DNA of 64,000 bases, taken from positions 1 to 64,000 of the forward strand of contig CAWDVP010000003.1 of NCBI GenBank assembly GCA_963805945.1, in the 5' to 3' direction. Of the stretch, positions 783 to 63,238 are shown in pieces (the stretch's first letter is position 1; every line of letters begins with the position of its first letter). A program made the translations under genes and the position numbers. The notes beneath the pieces are model-generated. The model saw only the letters and a program-made list of their open reading frames with translations. It did not search any database and had not been told where the DNA came from. The DNA comes from Vulcanimicrobiota bacterium (lineage in GTDB: Bacteria > Vulcanimicrobiota > Vulcanimicrobiia > Eremiobacterales > Eremiobacteraceae).

Positions 783-810
783 GGGCCGATCTGAAGATCG
801 GCCCCTACAT
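783..810 (-). repeat. REP-like palindrome, family A (ATGTAG-GGGCCGATC-TTCA-GATCGGCCC)
   Basis: 9-bp perfect stem, 4-nt loop and GTAG foot on the minus strand; 28 bp identical to 50004-50031. Confidence 0.85.
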
Positions 811-37179: not shown

Positions 37180-38709
37180 TTAGTGGATGGTCTGACGCGG
37201 CCGCTGCGGGTGATCCGCCTTGACGCCCGGGATAGGCCGGTCTGCCGCGGAGGTGCGACGAGCCGTGAACCCAAGCGCGAGAATGCCCGGCTTAGGCGCG
37301 TACATCCCCTCGTCGAAGATCCCAGCGACCGGCGCGTTCGCCACCGCGAAGATCCCCACCGGATGGCCCGCGCTATAGGCGGTCGCGATGTAGTCGCCCA
37401 CCATCTGGCCTTGGCTGGTCGCCGCCAGCCACGCGACGTTCATCGAGCCGGCGAGCGTGACCGGCGCTCCCCACGTCGTGCCGCCGTCTTGCGACGCGAT
37501 GAAGCCGACGAAGAGCTGGCAGGTCGCCACCGAGCAATTGGTGTTGGCGTAGTAGTAGTACGTGAGGCCGATATGCGCGCCCGCGCCGCTCGTCGCGGGA
37601 TCGATGCCGATGCCCGGGATGAAGTGATCGACGCCGCTCGTGACCAGGTCGATGGGGATGCGCGTCGGAATCGTCCACGAGGTGCCGTTCGACGACGTGC
37701 TCATGACGATGTCGTTGGCCGAGCAGCCCGCGCGAAAGCGGCAGTCCTGCCACACCGTATACACTTTGCCGGCGCCGTCGATGGCCGCAGAGGGCAGCGG
37801 GCCGCTGCGGATGCCGGCGGCGTCCAAGTGGTCTGTGATGGCCGAGACGATCACAGAGCCCGTCCAGCTCGCGCCGCCGTCCGTCGAGGTAAACGCGAGG
37901 ATGTTCGAAAGACTCGCATCGCCGATGGGCACGATGACGGTGCCGTTCGGCTGCACCAGCTGCTGTCCGCCGAGGCCGGTGGCGTTGTCCGCGGTGTTCA
38001 ACGTCGGACCCCACGTGAGGCCGCCGTCGGACGATGTGTTCATGTGGATGAGATCGCCGGCGCTCGGATCGTCCCACTCGACGTAGCAGTTGCCGTAGTG
38101 CGGGCTGCCGGGCGAATCGTCGCACGTGATCCAGTCCTTGTCGTTCGAGTTCACGATGGGCGTGACGCTCACCGGCGCGCTCCAGTTGATGCCGTCGCTC
38201 GAGCGGTTCACCAGCACCGCCGGCGTCAGCGTCGCGCTGAAGAAGATCGGCAACGATGAGGCCAGCCACACGGCGTGTTTGGCGTCGAACGCGATCCCCG
38301 GATCGCTGACGCTGTCGTATGGCCCGGGCGGCGCGACGTAGGTGGTCGTGCTCGGCAGCGAACCCGAGGTCCAGGTCGCGCCGCCGTCGAGCGACCTGGC
38401 GAAACCGATATCGGATGAACCGCCGTTGAAGAACCTGCCCTGCTGAAAGGTGGCGACGAGGGTGCTGCCAGATGCGAATATCGACGGCTCGACCTCAGTC
38501 GCGTGCTGGCTTCCCGCGTTGAGGAAAGGATCGGCACTGATGCGATTCGCGTTCGTCGTGATCGGCGGCGGCGTCGGTACCGGCGGCGTGCCGCCGCCCC
38601 CGTTCGAGCCGCCCCCGCACCCGGTCGCCAGACCGACAGCGGAGAGCAATGAGGCGATACAGGCGGTCGAATAAATTCGACCGCTCCATGGACTAGAGGC
38701 GCTTCGCAT
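37180..38709 (-). CDS. BNR/Asp-box (sialidase-like) beta-propeller lipoprotein
   Basis: ATG 38709, LATGC lipobox, repeated S.DGG.TW Asp boxes, DKDWI. Confidence 0.85.
   Translation of the reverse strand: MRSASSPWSGRIYSTACIASLLSAVGLATGCGGGSNGGGGTPPVPTPPPITTNANRISADPFLNAGSQHATEVEPSIFASGSTLVATFQQGRFFNGGSSDIGFARSLDGGATWTSGSLPSTTTYVAPPGPYDSVSDPGIAFDAKHAVWLASSLPIFFSATLTPAVLVNRSSDGINWSAPVSVTPIVNSNDKDWITCDDSPGSPHYGNCYVEWDDPSAGDLIHMNTSSDGGLTWGPTLNTADNATGLGGQQLVQPNGTVIVPIGDASLSNILAFTSTDGGASWTGSVIVSAITDHLDAAGIRSGPLPSAAIDGAGKVYTVWQDCRFRAGCSANDIVMSTSSNGTSWTIPTRIPIDLVTSGVDHFIPGIGIDPATSGAGAHIGLTYYYYANTNCSVATCQLFVGFIASQDGGTTWGAPVTLAGSMNVAWLAATSQGQMVGDYIATAYSAGHPVGIFAVANAPVAGIFDEGMYAPKPGILALGFTARRTSAADRPIPGVKADHPQRPRQTIH
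38664..38689 (-). repeat. REP-like palindrome, family B (ATGGAG-CGGTCGAA-TTTA-TTCGACCG), within the lipoprotein N-terminus
   Basis: 25/26 identical to 50045-50070; reads WSGRIYST in frame. Confidence 0.8.
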
Positions 38710-39172
38710 AGTGCGTATGCTCGGGTTCGTATCCAAGCGCTTTGTAGAAAGCGCGTGCGGGGACGTTCTGTTCCAATACATTGAGCGTCACCAGTTCGCA
38801 ACCGCGGCCGCGAGCCCATTCCTCGCATGCGGATATCAAGGCTCGGCCTACCCCGCCGCGGCTGCGGGCGACCACAACTTCAGAGATATGCGCCACCGGA
38901 CCGCCGGTGAAGAAGTCATCGACCAGCACGACCCAAGCGAAGCCGGCGCGCGAGTCCGCACGCTCCGCGATGAAGATCGCTGAACGCCCCGAACTTGGTG
39001 GACCCGAGCTGCGCTCAGGCAATACGGGCTCCGCGAGAGCGCGTTCGAGCTGCGCATTGGTCCCCGCGATCAGTTGTGCGGGCGTGCGCCACGCGGGAAC
39101 GCCGTTCTCGAAAAGCCGCGGCACGAGCCCCACGATGAAGTCGCGGTCGTCTGAGGTCGCCCGACGTATCAC
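38693..39172 (-). CDS. GNAT-family N-acetyltransferase (start uncertain: GTG 39172 or ATG 39274)
   Basis: IRRAT..D, GGVGRALI..CEEWARGRG..VTLNV..N..ARAFYKALGY. Confidence 0.85.
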   Translation of the reverse strand: MIRRATSDDRDFIVGLVPRLFENGVPAWRTPAQLIAGTNAQLERALAEPVLPERSSGPPSSGRSAIFIAERADSRAGFAWVVLVDDFFTGGPVAHISEVVVARSRGGVGRALISACEEWARGRGCELVTLNVLEQNVPARAFYKALGYEPEHTHYAKRL

Positions 39173-50002: not shown

Positions 50003-50031
50003 GGGGCCGATCTGAAGATCGGCCCCTACAT
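50003..50031 (-). repeat. REP-like palindrome, family A
   Basis: GGGGCCGATC-TGAA-GATCGGCCCC-TACAT; identical to 783-810. Confidence 0.85.
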
Positions 50032-50044
50032 ATATGGCGGCGTG

Positions 50045-50070
50045 ATGGAGCGGTCGAATTCATTCGACCG
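50045..50070 (+). repeat. REP-like palindrome, family B
   Basis: ATGGAG-CGGTCGAA-TTCA-TTCGACCG. Confidence 0.85.
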
Positions 50071-61437: not shown

Positions 61438-62666
61438 CGGTCGACCTCGCCGAACACCGGGTCCAGGCTGCCGATGATGGCCACGACGTCGGCGATGAGG
61501 CTGCCGATCGCCAGCCTGCGCAGCGCCTGCAGGTTGTAAAAGGAGGGCGGTCGCCAGCGCACGCGCCATGGCTTGTTGCCGCCGGCGCTCGTCAGGTACA
61601 TGCCCATCTCGCCGCGCGGGCTCTCGACCGACTGGTAGATGTGGCCCTCGGGCACGTTGAAGCCGGATGACACGAGCTTGAAGTGATGGATGAGCGCTTC
61701 CATCGAGTGCTGGATCTCGGTCTTGGGCGGCGAGATGATCTTGCGGTCGTCGATGGTGACGGGGCCGTCGGGGAACTTCTCACGCGCCTGCTTGATGATC
61801 CGCCACGCCTGATACATCTCGTCGAGCCGGACGACGAAACGGCTGTAGCAGTCGCCGGCCGTGCGCACCGGGATGTCGAAGTCATACGTCTCGTAGCCGC
61901 TGTACGGGAACGCCTTGCGCACGTCGTACGGCACGCCGCTCGCGCGCAGGATCGGCCCGGTGAGCCCCCAGTCGATCGCCTCTTGCGCGCTGATCACCCC
62001 GACGCCGACCAGGCGGTCCATGATGATGACGTTCTTCTCAAGGATGGTGCGCATGTCGGTGAGACGCTCGGGGAAGCGCCCGAGAAAGTCGTCGATCTTG
62101 GCGAGGAAGCCCACGGGCACGTCGATGCCGAGGCCGCCGATGCGGAACCACGACTGGTGCATGCGCGCGCCGGTCACGAACTCCATGATCTCGAGGATGC
62201 GCTCGCGCATCTCGAACGCGTACATGAAGATGGATTGCGCGCCCAGGTCCATCGCATGCGTGCCGAGCTGCACGAGATGGCTCGCGATGCGCGTGAGCTC
62301 GGCGAACATGACGCGCAGCACTTGCGCGCGCGGCGGGATGTCGTGAATACCGAGCAGCCGCTCGGCGCCGAGCACGTAGCACAGGCTGTTCGAGAGCGGC
62401 GCGAGATAATCGGCGCGGTCCACCACGGTGACGGCCTGCTGCCAGAAGAGGTTCTCGGCTTGCTTCTCGATGCCGGTGTGGAGAAAACCGATCTCGGGCT
62501 CGGCCGCGAGCACCGTCTCGCCGTCGAGGCGCAGCATGACGCGCAGCACGCCGTGCGTGCTCGGATGCTGCGGTCCCATCGACAGGACGAGCGTGTCGCG
62601 CTCGTCGCCGGCGACCGCGGTCATGTCCGGGCTGGTCTCGTACGCGGAGAGGTCGGTGACGCTCAC
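61434..62666 (-). CDS. nuoD: NADH-quinone oxidoreductase subunit D
   Basis: [32 protein letters not shown]; no NiFe CxxC motifs. Confidence 0.96.
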
Positions 62667-63238
62667 TTCGTCACCACCGGGGGCACATCGCCCGCTTTGC
62701 CGCCTGGGCTGAAGCGACGGTTGAGGCCGCGCAGCGGATAATCCTTACGCAGCGGATGGCCTTCCCAATCGTCGGGCATGAGGATGCGCCGCAGATCGGG
62801 GTGGCCGTCGAAACGGATGCCGAAAAGATCCCACGCCTCGCGCTCCGGCCAATCCGCGTTGGGCCACAGGCCGGTGAGCGACGGCACGACCGGGTTGAGA
62901 TCGTCGGCGAACACGCGCAGGCGGAAACGCGCGGGGACCAACGCCGCGGCGGATGGAGCGGTCGAGCGGCGGATCGTCATTCGACCGAAGGCCAGCAGAT
63001 GATACGATATCTCGAAGCGCGGCGTCAGCGGCAGATGGTCGGTGACGCCGATGTCGAGCAGGTGGTCATAGCCGCCCTCGCGCAGGATCGCGATCGCCGG
63101 CAGCAGCGAGGCCGCCGGAATGGCCGCTTCATCCATGTCCTGCGCGGAGACCGCTTCGAGCAGCGAGCTGCCAAGCGACGCGGAGAGCTTGTCGAGGACC
63201 GCGGCGTTGCCCGCTCGTCCGGCAGGCGTGTCAGGCAC
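62663..63238 (-). CDS. nuoC: NADH-quinone oxidoreductase subunit C
   Basis: [47 protein letters not shown]. Confidence 0.95.
62953..62987 (+). repeat. REP-like palindrome, family B with expanded loop, inside nuoC
   Basis: ATGGAGCGGTCGA-gcggcggatcg-TCATTCGACCG: the first 13 and last 11 nt are identical to the copy at 50045-50070. Confidence 0.75.

Follow-up and report, generated by a model that had tools for sequence, protein, structure and literature searches.

The gene nuoC in the stretch of DNA analysed here (the window, 64,000 nt) contains, within its reading frame, a palindromic repeat of a family that lies mostly outside genes elsewhere in the same genome. The locus raises the question of how a REP came to encode part of a core subunit of complex I, what placed it there, and whether the protein has made any use of it. 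An earlier note on this DNA had proposed that an active REP/RAYT-type system inserts into permissive protein loops and so provides a source of new protein sequence. In this study, we examine the repeat and its family, the NuoC loop that it occupies, the same loop in related genomes, and the REPs found in other genes.

The repeat belongs to a family of 24-nt units, referred to here as family B, in which a G[TG]AG tetramer is followed by a hairpin with the arms CGGTCGA and TCGACCG and a stem of 7-8 bp whose inner pairs co-vary. The genome of the window (G000; 2.3 Mb in 8 contigs, 82% complete) holds 133 strict copies and 178 profile copies of the unit; its left half is present on all 8 contigs, and the tetramer reads GGAG in 115 cases against GTAG in 20. 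Although 83% of the genome is coding, 117 of the 178 copies do not lie wholly inside called genes. With its tetramer-tagged hairpin, its high and dispersed copy number, and its mostly extragenic position, family B in this genome is a GTAG/GGAG-tagged REP. Its copies are mostly single, with 60 of the 178 having a neighbour within 90 nt, and inverted doublets, the prevailing unit of REPINs, do not predominate among them. Neighbours of mixed family are few (25 pairs within 90 nt, as a raw count). All 9 neighbour pairs of families B and C within 90 nt have the same orientation, and A-A pairs are mostly convergent (24 of 29).

Table 1. Features of the nuoC locus and REP copies in the window
Feature	Position	Strand	Remarks
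nuoC, NADH-quinone oxidoreductase subunit C	62663..63238	-	191 aa, intact, between nuoB and nuoD
Predicted coil, codons 84-102	62933..62989	-	19 residues between beta-strands 75-83 and 103-110
5' flank of the nuoC REP	62946..62954	+	Probably the sequence that was duplicated in the 9-nt insert
Left half of the family B REP in nuoC	62952..62965	+	GGAG tetramer 62955-62958, hairpin arm CGGTCGA 62959-62965
9-nt insert in the loop of the nuoC REP	62966..62974	+	Exact repeat of 62946-62954; frame kept, inner stem spoiled
Right half of the family B REP in nuoC	62977..62987	+	Arm TCGACCG 62981-62987
Intact intergenic family B REP	50046..50070	+	Convergent genes on either side; family A REP back to back with it
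Family A REP	50004..50030	-	15 nt from the family B copy; family that flanks the RAYT of G000
Intact family B REP	38664..38688	-	In frame in a lipoprotein-like gene, within its probable N-terminal extension; start codon uncertain
Decayed family C copy	39004-39026	-	Outside called genes
Further family A copy	783-809	-	Outside called genes

The nuoC reading frame is open throughout, and the operon is of the nuoA-N type, in which NuoC and NuoD are a textbook pair. The best NCBIfam match of the product is TIGR01961 (NuoC_fam; E 2e-33, 115 bits against a cut-off of 122), and its modelled fold matches the 30-kDa/Nqo5/NuoC chains of complex I. On the non-coding strand, GATGGAGCGGTCGA at 62952-62965 and TCATTCGACCG at 62977-62987 correspond to the intergenic family B copy at 50044-50070 over 14 and 11 nt, and are separated by a middle of 11 nt in place of 2 (+9). 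The earlier note was correct on the lengths of this match, on the longer middle, and on the preservation of the frame. Of the 21 extra residues that it ascribed to the repeat, residues 85-95 are REP-derived and the remainder are not, the repeat supplying codons 85-95. The upstream flank GCGGCG, put forward as a trait of the family, occurs in 3 of the 133 strict copies, and on that count a shared 5' flank was rejected as a sign of target choice. Lying in frame in an intact and conserved gene, the segment has the appearance of an intragenic palindromic repeat.

The 11-mer alone is uninformative in the window, with 6 matches at up to 1 mismatch against 4.8 expected, and one REP half alone occurs 6.8 times per codon shuffle. 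The strict two-part match, by comparison, was absent from all 20 codon-shuffled versions of the 1.9-Mb coding set, and a loose two-part form occurred 0.05 times per shuffle. The codons contributed by the repeat include GGT, CGA, GCT, and CCA, which are rare in G000 (5-9% of their synonymous sets). The two-part match in nuoC is not due to chance, and its REP origin is real. The full-length family B profile misses this copy, giving a score of -12.7 in spite of 20.1 of 23.1 and 16.1 of 23.0 for the two halves, and a two-part rule was therefore added for the count of coding copies. In 63 of 66 two-part matches the middle is 2 nt long; among single copies, a long middle is peculiar to the one in nuoC.

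The nuoC copy is a single unit, not an inverted doublet, and retains the tetramer and the outer 7-bp stem, which can still pair; the inner stem is broken. A 9-nt neighbour repeat such as 62946-62954/62966-62974 has a chance of about 0.6% in an 11-nt stretch. The extra 9 nt probably arose by a later local duplication of the flank and, since they duplicate it, the copy is decayed.

The segment lies in a predicted coil for which the AF2 pLDDT blocks are 75 and 66, against 92-94 on both sides, and which has the lowest model confidence within the folded core. These values are consistent with the permissive loop that had been proposed. Within the genus the loop, taken from after YH[FL] to before RFRLRV, is hypervariable at 7-36 residues. 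Among solved homologues, the loop of the mitochondrial chains shown is 7 residues long, and that of Thermus and cyanobacterial chains 11-12; in 82 more distant homologues the median length is 15 (range 7-25), and most REP-free relatives have 13-25 residues. The description of this site as normally a short beta-turn thus suits the mitochondrial chains, not the others. Because the loop is long in homologues without REPs, it was permissive before any REP arrived.

Seven assemblies of the genus (G000 to G006) are 72-98% complete, and repeat-flanked loci may be missing from them. Strict family B copies number 121-149 in three of the six congeners (G002, G005, and G006) and 1-6 in the other three (G001, G003, and G004). 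The nuoC genes of the former carry a perfect family B copy on the same strand and in the same frame as in G000, and no family B copy is present in the main nuoC of the latter; in keeping with the earlier proposal, relatives poor in family B are without its peptide. In the nuoBCD tree, from which the order of genomes was taken (G010, G013, and G016 being outgroup rows on which no claim rests), G000 is sister to the other six genomes, and the three poor in family B are nested beside G002. Four-fold sites in nuoBCD are 62-75% identical across the genus, and of the A/T-ending codons only 23-37% are conserved when G002, G005, and G006 are compared with one another. The 24-nt REP, in contrast, is identical in these three at all 8 codons, 6 of which end in A or T (p roughly 1e-4 to 2e-3 for each pair, a rate having been assumed for the two codons that end in G or C). 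An identical REP amid near-saturated synonymous sites suggests recency or refreshing.

Beyond these genomes, a REP peptide of family B, C, or D is found in the loop of 25 of the 47 closest NuoC homologues (the best 46 by rank plus P0054, the protein of G000 being excluded) against 0 of the 82 more distant ones, where peptide patterns were fitted after the loops had been viewed and a putative 'E' peptide class was left out. The 25 comprise 14 B reverse, 2 B forward, 3 C reverse, and 6 D reverse, families B and C being defined from G000 DNA and D seen as DNA in G005; homologues with P numbers were compared as peptides. By their source names, the nearest homologues belong to Eremiobacterota or its vicinity. 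The tree of NuoC alone, with many open forks and a long branch for the G000 protein, was used for a tight 100/95 clade only. A second homologue search added 10 proteins, all distant; the metagenome nuoC matches among those listed were likewise distant homologues (34-54% identity) and were set aside. In the seven genomes, a DNA pattern guessed for other REP families was uninformative, with 2 matches where the control had 3.

The type of REP changes between nearly identical proteins. At the peptide level, P0042 and P0044 share every residue outside the loop (135/135), yet carry family B in opposite strands, and P0020, with 133/135 identity outside the loop, has family C between nearly the same flanks. 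Fresh and decayed copies stand in tandem in the loops of G005, P0029, P0019, and P0007, and a second nuoC in the G004 bin contains, as seen in its DNA, an in-frame inverted REP doublet of a further family. This second gene (L279, G004:C56), whose same loop holds the complete doublet, lies at a contig end and is either a paralogue or a binning contaminant. In P0023 and P0044, which have forward-strand B and fall in different parts of the tree, the last codon of the REP supplies the invariant proline before the second strand. In a sister genus with 371-577 B-like copies, the loop is REP-free and 15 residues long in 2 of 3 genomes, those in which nuoC was found, which counts against a simple rule that more REPs bring more insertion.

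REPs inside genes are not confined to nuoC. In G000, 83 of the 2274 called genes contain REP copies, 98 in total against 1 for each codon-shuffled set (2 sets), far above the chance level that would have undermined the earlier proposal; genes were called with our own hexamer caller (83% coding), whose uncertain starts may miscount N-terminal copies in either direction. The suggestion that two of the three family B copies in the window are coding is plausible, with the reservation that the copy at 38664-38688 falls in a likely signal-peptide N-region with an uncertain start. That lipoprotein-like gene (37180-38781, minus strand) is 70% identical to a gene of G005; its probable signal-peptide N-region includes the family B copy, and the N-region of the G005 orthologue is unrelated. 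By profile alone, 61 of 178 family B copies, 30 of 83 family C copies, and 4 of 167 family A copies are coding. These shares are far below the coding fraction of the genome, and genes are therefore avoided or purged on the whole. Family A, the sole family with a resident RAYT, is nearly absent from genes, about one third of the B and C copies being coding, and G005 has no strict family A copy. Family A may represent the most recent wave; alternatively, its length or the peptides that it encodes may be harder for proteins to tolerate.

Of the 83 REP-bearing genes, 70 have a reciprocal best hit in G005. Both genomes have a REP in 20 of 1795 orthologue pairs, where 1.7 are expected, and 15 REP sites coincide among 72 and 46; the corresponding null has a mean of 0.25 with uniform placement, or 0.7-0.9 with placement in low-identity segments only, and reaches 6 at most in 5000 draws. 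The REP differs in family, strand, or frame at 10 of the 15 coinciding sites. The other 5 are of the same class, above the 17% expected under independence, so that inheritance contributes. At 3 shared sites family C in G000 faces family B in G005, a genome with 0 strict C copies. Five of the 15 sites were traced in congeners: a REP is present in 7 of 9 assessable loops of G002 and G006, with varying class, and in 0 of 14 rows from G001, G003, and G004, where the REP census covered family B only. The carB site shows three REP frames among congeners. At 18 lineage-specific sites compared with G005 there was no clean empty allele, length differences running from -15 to +32 residues. Among the codons that have changed within coding copies, 8 are synonymous and 11 non-synonymous, which indicates no protection of the REP peptide. 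The REP is thus a source of new protein sequence only in a passive sense, with no sign of selection on the peptide.

Two genes of G002 are split by a frame change. The alanine racemase gene (L273/L274, G002:C1, ~497300) is split at a loop where three congeners carry REPs, and a hairpin-like remnant lies at the G002 break, which may be a lesion or an assembly error. A second gene (L295/L296, G002:C1, ~1912660), presumably amidohydrolase-like, is split away from its REP. Given two such genes, G002 may have indel errors.

The transposases of these genomes do not account for family B directly. The one Y1 transposase of G000 (RAYT, L031:1519-1902) passes NF047646 and has family A repeats in inverted orientation on its flanks; no family B-flanked RAYT was found in this 82% complete genome. 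A tblastn search of the 2.71 Mb of G005 with six RAYT queries gave no RAYT, and G001-G004 and G006 likewise yielded none. In the sister genus, the hairpins that flank two G009 RAYTs have the tetramers and outer stem of family B and longer inner stems; the one G009 RAYT that was scanned passes NF047646. RAYT-like genes of related genera (L035, L036, L037, L038, L040, L041, and L044) are each flanked by their own GTAG/GGAG hairpin arrays and make up a compact REPtron set for biochemistry. An active REP/RAYT system behind family B, as the earlier note had it, is not supported in G000: the only RAYT found is associated with family A, six congeners yielded none, the nuoC copy is decayed, and neither a cognate RAYT nor, against G005, clean empty sister alleles were found.

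We favour, at a probability of about 0.6, the reading that the nuoC REP is a neutral passenger in a loop that has been re-seeded repeatedly, REPs being added beside older copies and later deleted or decayed, with RAYTs as transient agents. Codons 85-95, in a loop predicted to be flexible, derive from a decayed GGAG-tagged hairpin that is likely neutral. Within the genus, this loop would have received new REPs next to old ones again and again, probably placed by REP-associated transposases that come and go, and the older copies would then be deleted or decay. We infer the neutrality, the transposase as agent, and the order of addition before deletion; a resident REP would presumably offer CT or CA cleavage sites to a newcomer. 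In the available text of PMC8266576, the tetramer guides the choice of such sites in vitro in other REPtrons, and the mechanism of REP dissemination is described as poorly understood. Because no family B transposase was found in the seven genus genomes, the agent is missing, and this counts against re-seeding.

It is possible, though we hold it only tentatively, that in this genus existing REPs are preferred landing sites, that family and strand are swapped at the same junction inside essential genes, and that a seeded loop becomes a self-renewing hypervariable cassette, the renewal being due to passing transposases or to a transposase-free route.

Descent without new insertion is unlikely. 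One ancient REP doublet or mixed cluster in the ancestor of the genus, followed only by deletion, inversion, and decay in each lineage, would fit the strand and frame of family B shared by all four B-rich nuoC genes, with G000 sister to the rest, as well as the full inverted doublet in one nuoC. REP singlets are described as doublet remnants in the consulted part of PMC3116915, and co-located sites between two genomes are expected from inheritance alone. The ancestor would, however, have needed at least 4 families in one loop. Rare A/T-ending codons are unchanged in three species despite near-saturated neighbouring synonymous sites, and the family C copies that face B in a genome with no strict C are a further difficulty.

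Slightly less probable again is the maintenance of coding REPs by selection or homogenisation at the level of DNA or RNA (as a binding site, as an mRNA hairpin, or by gene conversion), for which no transposase is needed. Coding copies are mostly perfect (21/27 and 17/25 at six fixed codons), the REP codons of one orthologous site are identical amid flanking codons that differ synonymously, and family B is abundant with no RAYT detected. Against such upkeep, the nuoC copy of G000 is broken and three congeners do not have it, G006 has lost the copy at that orthologous site, and the method of detection favours intact copies; conversion would have little homology to work with between 24-nt units of different families or strands.

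Co-option of the REP-encoded peptide in complex I, as a new contact or an assembly step, is highly improbable. Related reverse-strand B peptides do recur in 14/47 homologues, but the peptides of other families or strands, or none, are equally tolerated, codon changes have no bias towards synonymous ones, and the loop has the lowest model confidence within the folded core. An ordinary loop sequence that resembles a REP by chance or convergence is the least credible of all, for although the loop is long and variable without REPs, the full-length profile gives the nuoC copy no score, and one half alone recurs several times per codon shuffle, this idea is refuted for practical purposes by both halves standing in order, by the rare codons, and by the perfect copies in the same loop and frame of three congeners.

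Single in-frame REP insertion in genes, NuoC included, is known; less ordinary is the turnover of a loop across families and strands. The reading frame records each REP event to the base, and a loop whose REP type changes between near-identical proteins is a natural record of target choice and replacement. In complex I, the NuoC loop is a site at which 7-36 residues are tolerated. A warning also follows, in that short recurring peptides in these proteomes are repeat-derived and not motifs.

Among known systems, Rickettsia palindromic elements (cited in PMC3733652 and PMC3184786) are alike in being palindromes translated in frame within functional genes. Unlike these elements, whose lengths are about 105-146 bp in the table of PMC3184786, the present one is 24 bp long, occurs in a high-GC bacterium, and has RAYT-linked relatives; it is not a Rickettsia palindromic element. 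With REPINs (the portions of PMC3116915 and PMC8049555 consulted) our loci share inverted doublets, one of them in frame in the second nuoC of G004. Family B, unlike REPINs, is mostly single and, where the REPIN model holds that copying into a gene destroys it, many coding copies persist here. Group 3 REPtrons (RAYT, TnpA-REP; PMC8266576 in part, NF047646) resemble family B in the 5' tetramer and perfect stem, and RAYTs flanked by inverted REP arrays are found both in G000 (family A) and in the sister genus (B-like). Family B departs from them in that its tetramer is mostly GGAG and no cognate RAYT was found in the seven genus genomes.

We found no paper on REPs in Eremiobacterota or on independent insertions into the same loop, in a literature search that lacked most subscription papers. 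REPs, classically extragenic in the earlier note, are not new inside genes, since intragenic GTAG- and CGTC-tagged REPs, hairpins of 20-40 bp with a tetramer tag that are mostly intergenic and in some cases in frame, are described in the accessible sections of PMC3733652, where neutrality in loops and linkers is proposed. Its Additional file 3 lists a REP in NuoC of Rickettsia conorii (RC0483) at residues 232-240 of 242, and others in R. conorii NuoL (RC1226) and in a complex I subunit of Opitutus (O. terrae Oter_2467). The same source reports one case, recB, in which the REPs of two Xanthomonas species differ and occupy about the same position; other genes are hit at different sites. The present repeats are like these in the tetramer-tagged hairpin and in their in-frame copies within known proteins. 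They differ, as far as those sections go, in that the nuoC REP lies inside the NuoC fold, that of R. conorii being C-terminal, in that about a third of the family B and C copies are coding, and in that REPs of different family, strand, or frame at the same site are common, as at 10 of the 15 sites shared between two genomes.
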